Below are positions 2,759 to 12,376 of a DNA stretch of 13,339 nucleotides, one piece after another; the stretch's first letter is position 1; the number at the start of each line of letters is the position of its first letter. The stretch lies in the IMG/VR virus record IMGVR_UViG_2711768040_000006, one strand, 5' to 3'. The notes below the pieces were generated by a model. It worked only from the letters and a program-made list of their open reading frames with translations. It was not told the DNA's origin and searched no databases. This stretch comes from a virus (Duplodnaviria > Heunggongvirae > Uroviricota > Caudoviricetes). The position numbers and the translations under genes were made by a program.

Positions 2759-2796
2759 AGACCCCATCAGTTATAGATGGGGTCTTAATTTTATTC
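2759..2796. terminator. Bidirectional rho-independent terminator between the convergent sopB and small membrane-protein genes
   Basis: 10-bp stem AGACCCCATC / GATGGGGTCT with a 7-nt loop, T-rich on the + side (TAATTTTATTC) and A/T-rich on the other. Could alternatively be a protein-binding inverted repeat. Confidence 0.5.
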
Positions 2797-3093
2797 AAAA
2801 AATATAAATACAAGTAAACACGCCACCACCGGCACAGCAAAATCCATCAGGCTTGCTACATCCCACGCACGCGGATCAAAACCGCCCCACCACGGCATAT
2901 TCATTCGCTTGCCATGCCCGAACATTTCAATCCAGCGATATTCTGCCTGGGTATGTTCACGCGCAATGAAGAACGTACAACCGGCTATCGCCCCGTAAGC
3001 CCAGTTTCCGGTAAAAAGACCAACCAGTACCTGCGCAGCCACAGCACAAAGTGCATGAAGGAAAGGTGTTATATCCATTTTCATCCTACCCAA
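2791..3093 (-). CDS. Hypothetical small membrane protein (two predicted hydrophobic helices)
   Basis: 100-aa ORF with two long hydrophobic stretches (FLHALCAVAAQVLVGLFTGNWAYGAIAGCTFFIA and ASLMDFAVPVVACLLVFIFFE). The track start is TTG; an internal ATG (about 3075) preceded by AGGA is the more likely start. No family recognised. Confidence 0.45.
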   Translation of the reverse strand: MGRMKMDITPFLHALCAVAAQVLVGLFTGNWAYGAIAGCTFFIAREHTQAEYRWIEMFGHGKRMNMPWWGGFDPRAWDVASLMDFAVPVVACLLVFIFFE

Positions 3094-3120: not shown

Positions 3121-4160
3121 TTATTTAGACGCAAGCGTCGCCTCAATTGCAGATAATCTTTGTTTTAATTCTGCATTTTCTTCTTCCAGTGCTGTTATTC
3201 TGTCGTCTGACTCTCTGGCTACCTGAACAAGCAAGCCAGTAACACCAGAATAATCTACTGTGTAATAACGTTCACCTTCTTCACCTTCCGATCCGCTTGC
3301 ACCGTCCTGATATTTCATTGCGGAACCTACAGCTTCTGGGATTGCTTCCAGAGCTTCCTGTGCAATGACACCAGCATAGGGCATACCGTTTTCTTTAAGC
3401 GTGTATGTATAGCCGTTCATTTTACGGATGCGGTCGGTTGCATTATCGATCACCTGAATGTTGTCTTTCAGATCCCGGTCGGAATGCTGGTTAAATGCGG
3501 TGGCATGACATGCACCATTAACGCTTAACATATAGGTGTTATCGGTATTTTTCTGCGCATAGAACATATAAGCGCCACCATCAACACCGACTTCATAAAC
3601 AACAGGACGGCTGGAGTGCCCCACAATTGAGCAGTAACACCAGCATAAGCGGTTCCCTGTGTGTTTAATGTCATGGTTGACCCATGATTGGCATATTTGA
3701 TCTGTAATGTGTCGGTGTAATCAAATTTAATAAGCGCGTTACTTCCACGCTTGCTGTATGACATAAGGCAGTTACCCATTTTGAGGTATCCGCTGTCACC
3801 GGGAAAAATCATCGTACCGCCATAAAGGTTGGTAAAGTCCCAGCAAATGTTTGTCCCGTTATCGTTCAGGTTAAGGCGCGCCATTGCGTTACCTGGACTG
3901 TCTATCCATTTTTTGAGGTATAGTTCGCAATACGCATCCTCAACACCTGCCGTCCTGTGAGTTGAGCGGAGTTTTCTCCCAAATATAGCTCCGCTAGTTG
4001 GCAATACCTGCTGATACCATGAAGCAGACCAGTCACCAACGATTTCATCTTTGCTGTCTACATATAATTTTGTTGCGTAGCTTCCTTGATCGTTTTTTAA
4101 TTTGCTAACGTCGGATTTTAGCGTTTTGATGTCATCAGGAATTACTGTCGATGTAGCCAT
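3121..4160 (-). pseudogene. Tail-fibre protein with C-terminal intramolecular chaperone (peptidase S74) domain, interrupted by a 1-nt frameshift
   Basis: Two overlapping - strand ORFs in different frames (3525..4160 and 3121..3624). The downstream one carries the S74 auto-chaperone signature HSDRDLKDNIQ..NGYTYTLKENGMPYAGVIAQEALEAIPEAV and a coiled C-terminus. Adding one G to the short G run near 3619-3622 would fuse them as ...TAQLWG-HSSRPVVYEV... (about 346 aa). Confidence 0.65.
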
Positions 4161-4169
4161 TTTTCTTCC

Positions 4170-4451
4170 TCACATCCAGCCACGAAGTTGATGCTCAACA
4201 GCAACCACGTATTCATCGAATAATGACGATATTTGCGAATCATTAATGATGCGCACGTTTACAAAATATCCGTCTTCCTTAACACATACCGGTTCGCCAT
4301 CTTCAGTCAGTTCTCCGGTTTCTTTGTACACGTTACCTATCACGTCAATAAGAATATCATCCTGCATCGACTCATCATCATAATAGCCGATACTCTCCAT
4401 AAAGGCCGAAAAGTCGGCCCTGTCGGCAAATTTGAGTGTTAAATCTTTCAT
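4170..4451 (-). CDS. Hypothetical small acidic protein (93 aa) between stf and the S74 fibre gene
   Basis: ORF with ATG at 4451. By my reconstruction its ATG overlaps the native (pre-IS2) stf stop as TAATG, suggesting translational coupling to stf. No family recognised; not lambda Tfa-like. Confidence 0.5.
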   Translation of the reverse strand: MKDLTLKFADRADFSAFMESIGYYDDESMQDDILIDVIGNVYKETGELTEDGEPVCVKEDGYFVNVRIINDSQISSLFDEYVVAVEHQLRGWM

Positions 4452-4532
4452 TAGATTGACTCCCCCACCTGAGCATCAGTCAATGCCTTGTGCCATATTC
4501 TGAAATTCCTGATATGACCAAATAAATGACGT

Positions 4533-4537
4533 GACCC
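4533..4537. repeat. Target-site duplication GACCC (IS2, right flank copy)
   Basis: 5-bp direct repeat immediately outside the IS2 terminus; a 5-bp duplication is characteristic of IS2. Confidence 0.6.
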
Positions 4538-4548
4538 TGGATTTGCCC

Positions 4549-5454
4549 CTATATTTCCAGACACCTGTTATCACTTAACCCATTACTGGCCTGCTGCCGC
4601 AGATATTCCCGTGGCGAGCGATAACCCAGTGCACTATGCGGATGCCATTCGTTATAATGCTCGAACGCCTCTGCAAGGTTCTTTGCTGCCGTTAACCCGT
4701 CTGGTTTAGGCATGATACTGATGTAGTCACGCTTTATCGTTTTCACGAAGCTCTCTGCTATGCCGTTACTCTCCGGACTCCGCACCGCCGTGTTCTTCGG
4801 TTCAAGCCCCAACATCCGGGCAAACTGCCGTGTTTCATTAGCCCGGTAGCATGAACCATTATCCGTCAGCCACTCTACTGGAGACGCCGGAAGCTCGTTG
4901 CCGAAGCGGCGTTCCACCGCTCCCAGCATGACGTCCTGTACTGTTTCACTGTCGAAGCCGCCCGTAGTGACTGCCCAGTGCAGTGCCTCACGGTCACAGC
5001 AGTCCAGCGCGAACGTGACTCGCAGTTTTTCTCCGTTATCACAGCGGAACTCGAACCCGTCAGAGCACCATCGTTGATTGCTTTCTTTCACGGCCACTTT
5101 GCCAGTATGTGCCCGTTTCGATGGCGGTACAGCGGTTTTTCGCTCAAGCAACAGCGCATTCTGGCGCATGATCCGGTAAACACGTTTGGCATTGATCGCA
5201 GGCATACCATCAAGTTCGGCCTGTCTGCGAAGCAGCGCCCATACCCGACGATAACCATACGTGGGCAGCTCTCCGATAACATGGTGTATACGGAGAAGCA
5301 CATCCGTATCATCTGAGTGACGGCTGCGGCGACCATCTTTCCAGTCATCGGTTCGTCTGAGAATTACGTGCAACTGCGCACGCGACACCCGGAGACAACG
5401 GCTGACTAAGCTTACTCCCCATCCCCGGGCAATAAGGGCGCGTGCGCTATCCAC
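4549..5454 (-). CDS. insD: IS2 transposase OrfB (InsD, DDE integrase-like catalytic domain)
   Basis: 301-aa ORF matching IS2 InsD as I recall it ([28 protein letters not shown]...). Naturally expressed as an OrfAB fusion by -1 frameshifting. Confidence 0.9.
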
Positions 5455-5777
5455 TTTTTTGCACGCCCGTATTCAACGGCTTCTTTAAGGAGTTCATTTT
5501 CCATCGTTTTTTTGCCGAGCAGGCGCTGGAGTTCTTTAATCTGCTTCATGGCAGCAGCAAGTTCAGAGGCAGGAACGACCTGCTCTCCTGCGGCCACAGC
5601 AGTAAGACTTCCCTCCTGGTATTGCTTGCGCCAGAGAAATAACTGGCTGGCTGCCACACCGTGTTGCCGGGCAACAAGGGAGACCGTCATTCCCGGTTCA
5701 AAACTCTGCTGAACAATAGCGATCTTTTCCTGTGTAGTACGCCGTCTGCGTTTCTCCGGTCCTAAGACATCAATCAT
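5412..5777 (-). CDS. insC: IS2 OrfA (InsC, HTH DNA-binding protein)
   Basis: The track ORF 5412..5822 begins at an upstream alternative start. The canonical InsC begins at the internal ATG giving [24 protein letters not shown]... (121 aa). Confidence 0.85.
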
Positions 5778-5852
5778 CTGCTCTCCAATGACTAGTCTAA
5801 AAACTAGTATTAAGACTATCACTTATTTAAGTGATATTGGTTGTCTGGAGAT

Positions 5853-8165
5853 TCAGGGGGCCAGTCTAGACCCTGCTGTAGTCTGGCCTCCAATACGGAT
5901 GGTTGCAGAGTTCTGAATATAGGACCACGTAGTCTTTTTTTCGCTGGATATGCGCCCGTTACTTACTGAGCACGTAGACTGATCTGATTTTACACGCATC
6001 CCCATAACCATTTTTTCAAGCGATGCGTTTTCGTTTACCCGTCTGTTAGCTCCTCCAATATCGCAATAAGGAAATCCGTCTGGCCCATCTGCCGCGGATC
6101 CGAACCCAAGAATAATAGCCGCTCCGGTTTGATGACCGCCGGTATCAAAAACACGCGGCGCTGCATTTGGCGTTTTATACCAGTTCTTATGTACCTCACA
6201 AAGAACCGTAAAAGGAAGATTATAAAGATTATTCTTAATGGGAACTGTAACTATATCGCTTGCGCGGGTCGCCGCCGTCGTTCCTGATATAATAAAAGAT
6301 GATACACAAGGCCCATTTTCTACTTGTGGGGTGGCCAGATAAATATAGTCACCAGATACGGTTGCCCCGCCCTGCTTAGGAGAATACTGTATCTGAGAAC
6401 CTATTTTTAACTCCCCATCAATTGCCTGAATTGTTGCCTCTGCAAAAATCCATCCGGTAGCTTCGTCCTTTCTGACTCTCGCTGTAATCCTTGAGGCAGC
6501 ACCGCCTGTCATATTAATTTCAAGCGTTTGTGTATCAATATACGCATCACCAAGAAAAGTTGTTGCGCTACCGTCATATTTATCAAACCGGATACGCAAC
6601 CTTACCTGCAGTTCTGTTTTAAAACGACATGAGGTTGTCACGTATTTATTATAGCCTGAGACATCAACTGACTTTGTTGCAGCAATTGATGCCATATTAA
6701 TGGCTGAGGTTTGCCCAATCAGAGAATCGTTACAGACGAACTTTCCATAGGTAAAACCAAAACTATCCTTCCCGGTTTCGGGAACATCCATATTTGACGA
6801 TCGCCCCCAACTGGCAGGGTTTTCCGAATTGAGCATGTAGTTTGTTCTTTGCCCCTCAATAAGCAGGCCATCACGTTCAAATCGTGGCTCGTCAATGGCA
6901 GCCTCTGTCAGCACACCAGATTTGTTAATATAGGTTGCTTTCGATGCACGTTTAAACTTAACAATCTTGTCGCCAGGCATCGTTATTTCATCGTCACCAA
7001 TAACAATTTTTTTATATGACGGCGAAAAGCCCGTAATCATATCCAGCGAATCGTTAAATGGTATCCACACATCAGGCAGCGGCTGTAAGACATATTTATA
7101 CGGCTCCGCAGCCTGGCTTGCGTACTCTCTGGCTGCATCTTCGCTTGCTTTAGCTGCCGTCTGGCTTGCTGCCGATGCTTTCGCTGAGTTCGCAGCCGCT
7201 GTTTCGCTCACCTTTGCGTTGGTTTCACTGGTTTTTGCTGCTTTTTGACTGTTAGCTGATGCAGTGGCAGAAGCAGCCGCCGCGCTTGCAGAACTGGCTG
7301 CGGCACTCTCGCTTTGAGCCGCTGCATCCTGACTGCTTTTCGCCGCAGTTTCACTGGCTTTGGCATTCGTTTCGCTGGTCTTCGCTGCCGTCTGGCTGGA
7401 CTTTGCGTTAGTTTCACTCGTCTTCGCAGCTTTCTGGCTGTTAGCCGCAGCAGTTGCTGATCCAGCTGCTGAAGTCGCAGAACCGGCTGCCGCGCTCTCG
7501 CTTTGGGCTGCTGCAACCTGGCTGTTTTTTGCCGCAGTTTCACTGGCTTTAGCATTCGTTTCGCTGGTTTTCGCTGCCGTCTGGCTGGACTTTGCGTTGG
7601 TTTCGCTCGTCTTTGCGGCTGTCTCACTGTTTTTCGCGTTGGTTTCTGATTTTTTGGCTGCTGTCGCGGAGTTTGCCGATGCAGTCTGTGAGGCCGCTGC
7701 TGCCTGTGCGCTGTTAGCTGCATTCGTTTCTGAGGTTTTCGCCGCGTTCTTCGATGATGCCGCTGCGGTTTCGGATTTCTTTGCCGCCGCTGCGCTCTGA
7801 GAGGCGGCTTCGGCGTTGCGTGCCGCTTCTTCCACCATTTCCTCAAAACGACGCAATGCCTCCGGCATGACATCATCTTCCGTCATGGCACCGAGAAAAT
7901 CATTCAGCGTACCTGGTCTGGAACCTTCATAGACGGTAATGGTTCCGGCATGTGAAGGCGGAAAACCTTCAACAAGCAGGATAACGCTGTACTGGCCATA
8001 CTCAACATCCATGCTGTAACGCCCGGCTTCATCCGGATTTTCAGAGGCCACCGTGTTCACCAGTACCGTGGTGCTGTTACGCTTTGCCTTCAGTTGAATA
8101 GTGCAGTTCTGTATTGGTTTTCCCGCACCATCTTTCAGCACACCTGAGATTTTTACTGCTGCCAT
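5853..8165 (-). CDS. stf: Side tail fibre protein Stf (lambda Stf-like N-terminal domain, long Ala/Ser/Thr/Lys repeat shaft, distinct C-terminal domain); 3' end replaced by IS2 sequence
   Basis: N-terminus MAVKISGVLKDG.GKP.QNCTIQLKA.RNSTTV.VNTV.SENPDEAGRYSMDVEYGQYSVIL matches lambda Stf as I recall it. ATG at 8165 with GGAG 5 nt upstream (track ORF starts at GTG 8171). The reading frame runs into IS2 and stops at 5853 inside the element (...TTAGSRLAP*), so the native last ~26 codons are lost. Confidence 0.85.
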   Translation of the reverse strand: MAAVKISGVLKDGAGKPIQNCTIQLKAKRNSTTVLVNTVASENPDEAGRYSMDVEYGQYSVILLVEGFPPSHAGTITVYEGSRPGTLNDFLGAMTEDDVMPEALRRFEEMVEEAARNAEAASQSAAAAKKSETAAASSKNAAKTSETNAANSAQAAAASQTASANSATAAKKSETNAKNSETAAKTSETNAKSSQTAAKTSETNAKASETAAKNSQVAAAQSESAAAGSATSAAGSATAAANSQKAAKTSETNAKSSQTAAKTSETNAKASETAAKSSQDAAAQSESAAASSASAAAASATASANSQKAAKTSETNAKVSETAAANSAKASAASQTAAKASEDAAREYASQAAEPYKYVLQPLPDVWIPFNDSLDMITGFSPSYKKIVIGDDEITMPGDKIVKFKRASKATYINKSGVLTEAAIDEPRFERDGLLIEGQRTNYMLNSENPASWGRSSNMDVPETGKDSFGFTYGKFVCNDSLIGQTSAINMASIAATKSVDVSGYNKYVTTSCRFKTELQVRLRIRFDKYDGSATTFLGDAYIDTQTLEINMTGGAASRITARVRKDEATGWIFAEATIQAIDGELKIGSQIQYSPKQGGATVSGDYIYLATPQVENGPCVSSFIISGTTAATRASDIVTVPIKNNLYNLPFTVLCEVHKNWYKTPNAAPRVFDTGGHQTGAAIILGFGSAADGPDGFPYCDIGGANRRVNENASLEKMVMGMRVKSDQSTCSVSNGRISSEKKTTWSYIQNSATIRIGGQTTAGSRLAP
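5869..5873. repeat. Target-site duplication GACCC (IS2, left flank copy)
   Basis: Second copy of the 5-bp direct repeat flanking IS2; coordinates +/-1. Confidence 0.6.
7140..7800 (-). repeat. Intragenic tandem repeats in the stf shaft region (about 180-bp units; protein repeats of the AAKTSETNAKxSxTAAK type)
   Basis: Near-identical DNA segments recur (e.g. about 7330-7470 vs 7510-7650). The translation shows two ~60-aa near-duplicate blocks plus many shorter SETNAK iterations. Confidence 0.7.
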
Positions 8166-8176
8166 ATCCACTCCAC

Positions 8177-8203
8177 AAAAAAGCCCGCCTGAACCGGCGG
8201 GCT
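8177..8203 (-). terminator. Rho-independent terminator downstream of lom
   Basis: On the - strand, AGCCCGCC-GGTTCA-GGCGGGCT hairpin followed by TTTTTT, between the lom stop (8230) and the stf start. Confidence 0.55.
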
Positions 8204-8229
8204 GTCATAACACTGTGTTACCTGGCTAA

Positions 8230-8829
8230 TCAGAATTTATAACCGACACCCACGATGAAACCGTCAGTGCGCCAGTCACCACTGCCGGAGCCTTCATAAG
8301 CAATATCAATGGCCACGGATTCGGTCGGGTTAAACTGCACGCCAGCTCCCCACGCCAGAGACGTGTTGCTGTGGCGATCATCATCACTTCCGGTCAGCAC
8401 ATCGTGCGTTTTCCCCTTGTTGTCAGTTACGCGGAGATAATCCCCGGAGAACGTCGACACCCGGCTGTAAGCCACACCTGCCATCGCATAAGCACTGAAC
8501 CATTCATTCACGCGTACAGATGGCCCCGCCATCATGCTGAACCAGCGGTTACGCACGGAATCTTCATGCCAGCGGGTATCGCTGTAATGCGTTTTTTGCT
8601 CATCTTTGGCATTGGCATAACTGAATGACGTCACCAGCCCCAGCGTGTCCGTAAATTCATAACGGTATTTCACGTTAATGCCCTTCAGGTCATCACTGCC
8701 TGGCATATCAGTATGGGTCTGAAGATACCCGGCGCTTAGTGTGGACTGATGCTCTGCTGCGCTCGCTGGCGTACCAGCGGCAACCAGCCAGACTACTGCG
8801 GACAGAATAACAGCACATAATTTACGCAT
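8230..8829 (-). CDS. lom: Lom outer-membrane protein (Ail/Lom/PagC beta-barrel family)
   Basis: 199-aa ORF with signal peptide (MRKLCAVILSAVVWLVAAGTPASA) and a C-terminal ...GVGYKF aromatic beta-barrel terminus. Position between J and stf is as in lambda. Confidence 0.9.
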   Translation of the reverse strand: MRKLCAVILSAVVWLVAAGTPASAAEHQSTLSAGYLQTHTDMPGSDDLKGINVKYRYEFTDTLGLVTSFSYANAKDEQKTHYSDTRWHEDSVRNRWFSMMAGPSVRVNEWFSAYAMAGVAYSRVSTFSGDYLRVTDNKGKTHDVLTGSDDDRHSNTSLAWGAGVQFNPTESVAIDIAYEGSGSGDWRTDGFIVGVGYKF

Positions 8830-8896: not shown

Positions 8897-11800
8897 TCAG
8901 CTGATACTGATGCCTGCGGTGGCTTTCTTCATCACCACAACCAGCAAATCGCTGATACTTGCTGTGGGATACCAGTCATTTACCAGCCATGCTGACACCG
9001 AAAACTCCAGCGTCATGTGACCGTGACCGGCAGGCATATCAATAACGCCACTGTAAATCAGCGTATTATCCAGCGCGGTACGGTTATAAATTTCAGCACC
9101 GTTTTTCCGCACTATCAGACGGCATGAGGAGTAAATATCAGTATGCTCTCTCTCATGTTTAGCGCCGCTGAATGCCACCGCCGGAATAACAATCTGCCGG
9201 TCAAACGGCTGATCGTCATAAACCCTGACGGTAATGGTCCCTGATGGCCACCGTTCCGGTGCACGGGAGTCACGGGGGAAAGCTTTGCCCACTGTTTTAA
9301 CGAGATCGCCTTCAATCTGGTTCGCGGACAGTTTTCCCAGAACCCGGCAGTTCTCGTTAATCGTGACGTTGTTGAGCGTCCCGGAGTTCGCATTCACGTT
9401 ACCGCTGATATCGGCATTTTTTGCCGTCAGCCGCCCGTCCGGTGTCAGGGAAAATGCCGGAGGATTACCGCCGCTGGTAATGGTGGGAGCCGTCAGATAT
9501 TTCAGGAACACTTCATTCATAAATATCTGATCGCCCTGACCAACAAACATCGGCTTTGTGTTGCCATTCGCAGGATTAATCATCGCAATCCTGTCCGCCG
9601 CCAGCAGCACCTGACTCTGCATGCCGTCAGGGGTATTCTCAATACCGGCACCAATACCCGCGATATAAAGGCGTCCGTCCTGCATCTGCTGCAGCTTCAC
9701 AGCCCACATGCTGTTCAGGTTATTATTTGTATCAACCTGAACCTTCTGTATCTGCTGAATTGCCGCACTCTGGTCTTCCAGTTTCTTATTGACGGTCTGC
9801 GTGATTTCATTGCTGACATCCGTAATGGACGTCCTGATTTCAGCCAGGTCAGGCGCAAGCTGACCGTTATCAATCTGCGTCCACAGCTCCTGAGCCAGAT
9901 GGCTTTGCCCTATCTCTCCTTTGAAAAAATCCAGATAGCCGGATGCATCATCACTCGGCTGGCCAACAGCCTCCACAAATGCCGATTTGCCAACGGTGTT
10001 CACACTGCGGATATAAAAGTAATAATCATGGCCCGGTTTGATATTGATACTGGCGGCTATCCAGTACAGCGCCGTGCCAAGATAGCGTGCTGTGGTTTCA
10101 ACCTGCCTGATATCCGCAATCCGCTTTTCCGAGAACCAGAACTCAAACTGTACCGTCGGATCATAAACCGCAAGATACGGCGTGGCAGTTATCTGAAAAT
10201 AGCCCGGCGTCAGCTCAATCCGCGACGGCGCTGCCGGTGCGGCAATCCGGAACGATACCGACGCCGGATCGCCCTGCTGCCCCCACGCATTTACTGCCCG
10301 GACTGTCAGCCTGTAGTTCCCCAGCGCCAGTTGCCTGAAGCGGTATGTGGTTTCCGTCGTCCTGGCCGTGCTGACCAGCCGCTCACTGCCGTCGTCCGCT
10401 GCCACGGTCAGACGGAGCAGGAAGCTCACGCCCTTCACCACCTTCGGCGTGTCCCAGCGCGCCAGCACCTGGTATTCCCCGCTGTCTGCGGTGACTTCGG
10501 CGGTCAGGTGCTGCACCGCTGGCGGCGTGACACCATTCACCGTGCCGCTCTGGTCGCCGTCAAAGTGCGCCCCGTTATCCACGATGGCTTCTTTCTCCGG
10601 CACATGCTGCACGGCAGTGATGGCATACGTGCCGTCATCGTTCTCACGGATACTCACACAGCGGAACAGGCGCTGGCGCAGCGTCGGCAGCTTCAGCCCC
10701 CATACGCTGTATTCGGCAACACCGTCAGGAACACGGCTCACTTTTACCTTCACGCCGTCGGTGACGGACTGAACCTCCACGCTGACCGGATTGCCACTTC
10801 CGTCAACCAGGCTTATCAGCGTGGTACCGGAGGATGGCAGCGTGATTTCACGGTCGAGCGTCAGCGTCCGGGTCTGGCTGTTCACCGCCAGCACGCGACC
10901 ACCGATGCTGATACCGGCATAGTCATCATCACAGATTTCAATGACATCGCCCGGTACATGGCGAAGCCCTTCGGCACCCACGCTGAAGTCCACGGTCTGC
11001 GTTTCCAGCAGTTCCGTTTTAATCAGCCACAGCCCGGCGCGGTGCGCCTGCCCCCGGCTGGTACAGCCAAAGGCATCCATCTTCGTAACATTACGACCGT
11101 AACGGGCAATGGCCTGCGTATCTTCAACAAGCTCTGTCGCCGTCTCCCAGCCGTTGTTCGGGTCAATCCAGTTCACCTCAACGGCATTATGGCGGTCCTT
11201 CAGGGCGCTGAAGCTGTAGCGGAACGGCGCGCCATCATCCGGCATCACCACATTACTGCGGTTATAGGTCCACACCTTATCTGATGGTCGGTCCTGCACG
11301 AACGTCAGCGTCTGCCCGTTCCATACCGGCATACAGCGCATCGCCGAGCAGAAATCACTGAGCACATCCCACGCCTTGCGCTGTGTGGTCAGGTACGCAT
11401 TACAGGTGATGCGCGGCTCCATGCCGCCAAAGCCGTCCGGCACTGACTGGTCGCAGTACTGGCCGATGACATACAGCGCCCATTTATCCACATCCGCCGC
11501 ACCAAGACGTTTCCCCATGCCGTAGCGCGGATGGGTCAGCATATCCCACAGACACCAGGCCATGTTGTTGCTGTATGCCGGTTTAAACGTTCCGTCCCAG
11601 ATACCGCTGTATTGCCGCGTCTGCGGGTTATAATTCGACGGCACCTGCAGAATACGCCCGCGCAGATGATAATTACGGCTCACCTGCTGGCTGCCGAACT
11701 GCTCCGAGTCCACCTGCACGCCGACCAGTGCCGTGTTCGGGTAGCACTGTTTCACATCGATGATTTCGGTGTATGACGACCAGAGCGTTTTGTTCTGCAG

Positions 11801-12376
11801 CTGGTCTGTGGTGCTGTCCGGCGTCATCCTGCGCATCCGGATATTAAACGGGCGCGGCGGCAGGTTATCCACCACCACCGAGGCCAGATACTGCGAGGTG
11901 GTTTTGCCTTTAATGGTGATATCTTTTTCCGTCACCCAGCCACCGTTACGCTGTATCTGAACCAGCAGGCGGACTTCCGACGGATTCCGGTCCCCCTTTG
12001 AGGTGGTTTCCACCAGTGCCTGCACACCGAAGGTAAAGCGCAGACGGTCGATGTTTGCAGACGTGATGGTCCGGGTAATCGGCGTGTCGTATTTCACTTC
12101 CGTACCCAGCACCGTCTCGGAACCGGAGGATTCAAATCCCTCCGGCGGTGTCTGCTCCTGCTCACCTGCCCGGAACACCACCGTGACACCGGAGATGTTG
12201 GTATTCCCCTCACTGTCCAGCACCGGTGTACTGTTCAGCAGCACGCTTTTTAATCCATCCACCGGACCTTCTATCGGCCCTTCGCTGATGGCATCGATCA
12301 CACTCAGTAACTGCGTGGATTTCAGGTTGTCCTTCGCTTCGCGCGGGGTATGCCCCTTACTGCTGCCTTTACCCAT
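8897..12376 (-). CDS. J: Tail tip / host-specificity protein J (central tail fibre)
   Basis: 1159-aa ORF. N-terminal about 800 aa are near-identical to lambda J as I recall it ([45 protein letters not shown]...), with fibronectin-like middle repeats. The C-terminal ~350 aa diverge from lambda. Confidence 0.93.

Follow-up and report, generated by a model that had tools for sequence, protein, structure and literature searches.

The side tail fibre gene, stf, of the laboratory phage lambda PaPa reportedly carries a frameshift, as Hendrix and Duda are said to have found in 1992, and Sengstag and Arber are said to have described a hot region for the insertion sequence IS2 in phage P1 in 1983. IS2 itself is defined by imperfect inverted repeats of 41 bp at the right end (IRR) and 42 bp at the left end (IRL) and by an A6G frameshift site (PMC3299598). 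Its insertion sites have been linked to curved DNA (PMC3299598), and regional hot targets without a sequence consensus are documented at yafD and dcuA in long-term cultures of Escherichia coli (PMC7858067). Here we describe a complete IS2 within the stf gene of a tailed phage, IMG/VR record IMGVR_UViG_2711768040_000006. The window analysed, 13,339 nucleotides in length, is the entire contig CXXD01000035.1 of draft assembly GCA_001269005.1. We conclude with high confidence that IS2 inserted at codon 769/770 of stf in an N15-like linear plasmid prophage, duplicating the sequence GACCC. It would have arrived by its normal copy-out, paste-in route.

Evidence comes from the two junctions. On the plus strand ATGACGT is followed by GACCC and then by TGGATTTGCCCC, the first bases of the element; 1331 bp from that point the element ends with GGGGGCCAGTCTA and is followed by GACCC and TGCTGTA. 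In longer form, positions 4520-4558 read AAATAAATGACGT-GACCC-TGGATTTGCCCCTATATTTCC and positions 5850-5882 read GATTCAGGGGGCCAGTCTA-GACCC-TGCTGTAGTC. A preliminary description of the window, made from its letters alone, had placed a complete IS2 with both inverted-repeat ends and a 5-bp GACCC duplication at 4533-5873. The junctions and a comparison with the K-12 copy IS2A bear this out, to the base in the case of the coordinates. The features of the insertion are as follows.

4538-5868, minus strand: complete IS2 of 1331 bp, whose transposase genes share a strand with stf; 95.8% identity in the comparison with K-12 IS2A
4533-4537, no strand: GACCC target-site duplication, IRR side; a single copy in the empty allele of plasmid pF16EC0211-3
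5869-5873, no strand: GACCC target-site duplication, IRL side, from the junction sequence
4538-4578, minus strand: IRR, 41 bp; its tip is TGGATTTGCCCC on the plus strand and matches K-12 IS2A
5827-5868, minus strand: IRL, 42 bp; its tip is TAGACTGGCCCCC on the minus strand, and it contains the TGA that now ends stf
5412-5777, minus strand: insC (orfA), 121 amino acids; NF006928 (IS2 TnpA) at 275.8 bits (cut-off 229) and PF01527
4549-5454, minus strand: insD (orfB), 301 amino acids, the DDE integrase core of the OrfAB transposase; NF006918, PF00665 and PF13683
5454-5460, minus strand: A6G (AAAAAAG) programmed -1 frameshift site, from the sequence and the K-12 comparison; the feature is defined in PMC3299598

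Length and inverted repeats, orfA and orfB with the A6G site, a DDE transposase of the IS2 subfamily and a 5-bp duplication together identify the element as IS2. It is as long as K-12 IS2A (NC_000913.3, 381260-382590), from which it differs by no indels and 56 substitutions, none of which falls at element positions 1-87 or 1306-1331. Inverted-repeat arms are detected at 4546-4578 and 5827-5859. The InsC protein is identical to K-12 InsC1. InsD differs from InsD1 at 11 of 301 residues; it matches NF006918 (IS2 TnpB) with 706.5 bits over residues 1-301 of 301, above the curated NCBIfam cut-off of 597, and PF00665 (rve) with 71.4 bits. The whole element is 100% identical to copies in at least five other E. 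coli records and, judged by the integrity of its sequence, is active-looking.

What did the site look like before the insertion? Plasmid pF16EC0211-3 carries the exact empty site, GACGTGACCCTGCTGTAG, with one GACCC and flanks identical to those in the window. Chance cannot account for the match: the sequence equals that of a known element over 1331 bp, and in alleles without the insertion the two flanks meet exactly. The 36-mer AAATAAATGACGTGACCCTGGATTTGCCCCTATATT could serve as a screening sequence for this insertion.

The interrupted gene and the genes downstream of it, all on the minus strand, are these.

5853-8165, minus strand: truncated stf, 770 amino acids from ATG, ending in AGSR followed by LAP and a stop; PF08400 N-terminal domain and NF048003
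4451-4532, minus strand: orphaned 3' terminus of stf, made up of the final base of a Ser codon, then RHLFGHIRNFRIWHKALTDAQVGESI and a stop; intact homologues have the same C-terminus or almost the same
4170-4451, minus strand: 93-amino-acid gene, matching phrog_1361 over its full length; its ATG overlaps the native stf stop (TAATG)
3121-4160, minus strand: distal fibre gene with a C-terminal Peptidase_S74 chaperone, split into open reading frames of 211 and 167 amino acids; PF13884 and phrog_4563

Three observations identify the target as a side tail fibre gene, as had been proposed. PF08400, the N-terminal domain of prophage tail fibres, is matched at 224 bits over residues 5-134. The gene order on the minus strand is J (8897-12376), lom (8230-8829) and stf (5853-8165), followed by IS2, the 93-amino-acid reading frame, the 211- and 167-amino-acid reading frames and one of about 100 amino acids (2791-3093). 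Finally, when IS2 and one GACCC are removed in silico, the reconstructed Stf matches phrog_1419 end to end (1-793 of 793). Stf also contains a long Ala/Ser/Thr-rich repeat region and a domain related to the head spike fibre of the Rhodobacter gene-transfer agent (GTA) (NF048003; PDB 6tb9, E = 6e-7). Within the repeats lie further reading frames of 93, 146 and 222 amino acids (6967-7876), on the opposite strand or in other frames; these look like by-products of repetitive, biased sequence and not like genes.

Counted from a GTG the excised gene has 794 codons, and the ATG start gives a 792-amino-acid product. Its last residues are AGSRHLFGHIRNFRIWHKALTDAQVGESI, and its stop overlaps the ATG of the 93-amino-acid gene as TAATG, so the predicted restoration of the frame holds. 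The insertion lies 82 bases before the end of stf, and the present gene, which is not full-length, stops 25 residues early.

If the reconstruction is correct, uninterrupted relatives should end stf at the same place. They do. The excised contig aligns to plasmid pG749_3 over all 12,003 nucleotides with 97.4% identity. The annotated stf genes of pG749_3, the temperate phage Tritos and the virulent Nonagvirus vB_EcoS_ESCO3 end RHLFGH(I/V)RNFRIWHKALTDAQVGESI and a stop, with the junction TCAATCTAATGAAAGATT, and in all three stf is followed by the 93-amino-acid gene and then by a 346-amino-acid Peptidase_S74 chaperone fibre. The divergent variant p13TMH22-2 ends its stf with the same motif and TAATG, and the uninterrupted stf of pF16EC0211-3 also ends at TAATG. 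Had homologous intact genes stopped at the present junction, the preliminary description would have been wrong; those of pG749_3, Tritos, ESCO3 and p13TMH22-2 all end at TAATG and none at the junction. As a separate observation, the distal stf domain, the 93-amino-acid gene and the S74 fibre share about 94-97% DNA identity across temperate lambdoids, N15-like plasmid prophages and the virulent Nonagvirus. To judge from this identity, the shared cassette indicates recent horizontal exchange of receptor-binding genes.

The host element is, by its gene content and ends, an N15-like linear plasmid prophage and not an integrated one. This assignment rests on a terminal palindrome, on sopA/sopB and on the protelomerase, RepA and Q of pG749_3. 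The palindrome is a perfect one of 258 bp at positions 1-258, with its centre at 129/130 and its core at 103-158; the centre reads TATCAGCACATAATTTCCCATTATACGCGCGTATAATGGGAAATTATGTGCTGATA and contains CCATTATACGCGCGTATAATGG, which looks like an N15-type telO site. The start of the contig is most simply explained as read-through of a hairpin telomere. The palindrome has its symmetry axis in common with pG749_3, and beside it, at 587-2742, lie sopA and sopB. Plasmid pG749_3 encodes a protelomerase, a 1331-amino-acid RepA, Cro, CI and Q, and lambda-like head and tail genes; the 13.3-kb window itself has no protelomerase or repA gene. pG749_3 (NZ_CP014491.1) was deposited as a 62.6-kb circular plasmid, yet its sop and protelomerase regions are duplicated in inverted orientation; a linear replicon with hairpin ends, wrongly assembled from long reads, is the probable explanation.

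How does the insertion change the fibre protein? Stf loses 25 native residues and gains LAP, and its new stop is the TGA inside IRL, at 5853. By coincidence the junction retains both the Ser and the Arg codon. The native C-terminus had been said to be replaced by RLAP; the truncation is real, but the Arg after AGS is native in both versions and the gain is LAP only. Nowhere is the terminal domain of Stf better conserved than in the segment that is lost: the last 26 residues of the native protein are identical at 21 of 26 positions (81%) between two variants that share 35% over a 232-amino-acid alignment, and 16 of these 26 positions are invariant among 24 homologues. The last 53 residues of Stf align with positions 98-150 of the 151 in Laminin_G_3 (PF13385), at 23.7 bits, below the Pfam cut-off of 27.6. 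The missing residues thus appear to form the terminal, most conserved part of a ConA/LamG-like jelly-roll domain. Given this conservation, the truncated Stf is very probably non-functional; misfolding, or a failure to hold the distal parts, is the probable reason. Any virions still produced would then have no working side fibres and only J to rely on.

The genes downstream are affected as well. IS2 now stands, as had been noted, between stf and the distal fibre genes, separating stf from the 93-amino-acid and S74-chaperone genes by 1.33 kb. The TAATG overlap of stf with the 93-amino-acid gene, which also occurs in pG749_3, Tritos, ESCO3 and p13TMH22-2, is lost. In that sense the proposed breakage of the coupling is right, but the 93-amino-acid gene retains a Shine-Dalgarno sequence of its own, GGGGGAG, 8 nucleotides 5' of its ATG. 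In operons, IS2 classically exerts polarity by way of Rho-dependent termination. No intrinsic terminator was predicted in or around IS2 in a scan of 4100-6100. Late transcripts probably still reach the downstream genes, without translational coupling, because the relatives encode a Q antiterminator.

The distal fibre gene carries a lesion of its own. Compared with the intact 346-amino-acid homologue of pG749_3 it has 99.1% DNA identity and a single gap, a 1-bp deletion (AA to A) near 3618, where pG749_3 reads GGGGCAACTCC and the window GGGGC-ACTCC. This deletion is a second lesion of the fibre module or possibly a sequencing error. If it is real, the IS2 insertion and the frameshift are two independent lesions of the receptor-binding module.

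The age of the insertion is harder to judge. The junction finds no single-piece match in 5,426 complete E. coli genomes, and no plasmid among the 72,556 in PLSDB covers a 5.1-kb query across it. Metagenome and species-representative contigs contain no exact match either, a result of little weight because the control 36-mer of the empty site turned up just once in the metagenome contigs and never in the species-representative ones. The exact 770-amino-acid truncated Stf is recorded for this contig only. Because the junction is unique among the collections searched and both IS2 and the duplication are undamaged, we infer that the insertion is strain- or lineage-specific and evolutionarily young. 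The preliminary description had called the event recent; intact reading frames, an intact duplication and the uniqueness of the junction among the records searched support the word, in a relative sense only.

The best-surviving alternative is that the insertion is old and was inherited in a long-defective plasmid prophage. The 1-bp deletion in the distal fibre gene fits such ongoing decay of the module. Absence of the junction from every collection searched speaks against an old insertion, as do the intact reading frames, ends and frameshift site of IS2, its 100% identity to copies elsewhere and the intact state of all the other genes on the contig. We regard an old insertion as improbable.

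Still less likely, and by a clear step, is a functional insertion, in which IS2 provides a promoter for the 93-amino-acid gene and the distal fibre gene, or in which the truncated Stf still works and alters the host range. The idea has a basis in the known biology of the element: the IRR of IS2 supplies the outward-facing -35 element of the promoter Pjunc (PMC3299598), and in the window IRR faces the downstream genes. The flank speaks against it, however. Where a -10 element is needed, at the mandatory 17-bp spacing, the flank reads GGTCAC, and a consensus scan of 4100-6100 found two promoter-like sites against 2.3 expected, none of them on the minus strand at the IRR junction. A hybrid promoter formed by IS2 and its flank thus finds no support in the scan or in the Pjunc geometry. 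Moreover, the downstream fibre gene is frameshifted, and the residues that Stf has lost are the most conserved of their domain.

Least credible of all is an assembly artefact in which multi-copy IS2 was misthreaded between contig ends and the real stf is intact: the window is a complete 13.3-kb draft contig and multi-copy insertion sequences usually break short-read contigs, but the junctions fall at the exact IS2 termini beside a perfect 5-bp duplication that is single-copy, with identical flanks, in the empty allele of pF16EC0211-3, and because a mis-join would not create a target duplication such a chimera, a possibility raised from the outset, is very unlikely.

Several points nevertheless weigh against our reading of a young insertion that inactivated a working fibre gene. 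The window comes from a draft assembly, and its junctions are known from assembled sequence alone. 'Recent' is used without a clock, and a 5-bp repeat and an intact insertion sequence can persist for a long time. IS2 may have entered a fibre module that was defective beforehand. Finally, we infer the loss of fibre function from a Laminin_G_3 match below its cut-off, and an AlphaFold2 model was unusable: built for a 433-amino-acid homologue with a 24-sequence alignment, it averaged a pLDDT of 38.5 and stayed below 50 at every one of the last 195 residues. That alignment was too shallow because all the homologues listed are at least 77% identical.

Is this target region special? At least 15 distinct IS2 sites occur in other E. 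coli within the same module of about 1.3 kb, which runs from the 93-amino-acid gene to about 1 kb into stf (mapped on pG749_3, 7098-8389). The hits lie in chromosomal lambdoid prophages and in plasmids, and 14 of these other insertions have a 5-bp duplication of their own. The exception is E. coli F8 (NZ_CP182282.1), where IS2 has stf on one side only, unrelated prophage DNA on the other and no target duplication, a configuration consistent with an IS2-adjacent deletion or rearrangement. The first eight insertions found all lay in the orientation of stf. This apparent bias is an ascertainment effect, because the search joined pieces on one strand only; a query with reversed IS2 ends returned 16 genomes in which IS2 runs against stf. 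These represent four sites, and 13 of the genomes inherited the same one. Over the 15 mapped sites, 11 are oriented as stf and four oppositely, which is not significant (binomial p = 0.12). Interruption was also counted over two 1-kb segments.

Fibre module, 1-kb segment: intact in 434 genomes, IS2-interrupted in 26 (26/460 = 5.7%)
3' part of J, 1-kb control segment: intact in 2840 genomes, IS2-interrupted in 8 (8/2848 = 0.28%)

The module is interrupted far more often than J (odds ratio 21, Fisher p = 2e-16, with genomes counted without phylogenetic independence), and when events are counted, 13 in the module and 5 in J, the odds ratio is 17. J 3' is a single control segment, and its G+C content is 56% against 42-44% in the module. 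We put the chances about even that the distal module, comprising the last 1 kb or so of stf and the 93-amino-acid gene, is a genuine regional IS2 hot target in natural E. coli.

The cause of such a preference could lie in the structure of the target DNA, which may be AT-rich or curved, or it could instead lie in selection on lysogens for inactivating fibre genes. The present site offers one further candidate, a sequence resembling the tip of IRL.

5879-5891, plus strand: IRL-tip-like target sequence TAGTCTGGCCTCC, matching the IRL tip TAGACTGGCCCCC at 11 of 13 positions

This 13-mer lies 10 bp outside IRL and is inverted relative to it. The similarity was spotted post hoc. A match this good (11/13) is rare by chance, occurring in 19 of 3000 random 80-nucleotide windows of the excised contig. 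End-like target recognition is reported for other elements of the IS3 family, and TAGTCTGGCCTCC may hint at something similar here. As a general cause it was rejected: a sequence like the inverted repeat lies within 40 bp only at the present site (11/13) and in SMS-3-5 (10/13), and the other 13 sites have none.

What do these observations mean for the phage? Given the two lesions, the side-fibre apparatus of this strain's plasmid prophage is very probably non-functional, and released phage, if any, would have an altered or narrowed adsorption capacity. Full-text literature searches returned no paper describing IS2 in this fibre gene. This is a well-known element behaving in a well-known way, and the disruption is real but ordinary. 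Its value is as a clean textbook case of prophage decay mediated by an insertion sequence, for which the empty-site allele is available. Should the hot target stand up to a phylogenetically controlled analysis, the laboratory evidence for regional IS2 hot targets would gain an example from natural populations, and a common way of losing these fibre genes would be flagged.

Set beside known systems, the locus compares as follows. Like K-12 IS2A, the element has 1331 bp, the same termini, orfA and orfB with A6G, a DDE core and a 5-bp target duplication; it differs in being a non-K-12 variant that is common on plasmids and chromosomes of E. coli and Salmonella. Its host shares with N15 and N15-like prophages the arrangement of lambda-like tail genes followed by an opposite sopAB operon beside a hairpin telomere with the core CCATTATACGCGCGTATAATGG. 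As at yafD and dcuA, many independent IS2 sites fall within about 1 kb, in both orientations and without a target consensus; here, in contrast, the target is a phage receptor-binding module sampled across natural isolates, where selection and shared ancestry are inseparable from target preference. A further parallel is lambda PaPa, in which, as is probable here, the side fibre gene of a lambdoid phage is reportedly inactivated near or within its coding region and the J-dependent tail tip is left intact. The lesion here is of another kind, an IS insertion at the cost of the last 25 residues only. The distal module differs too: a GTA head-spike-like domain, a putative ConA-like domain, the 93-amino-acid gene and an S74-chaperone fibre take the place of tfa.

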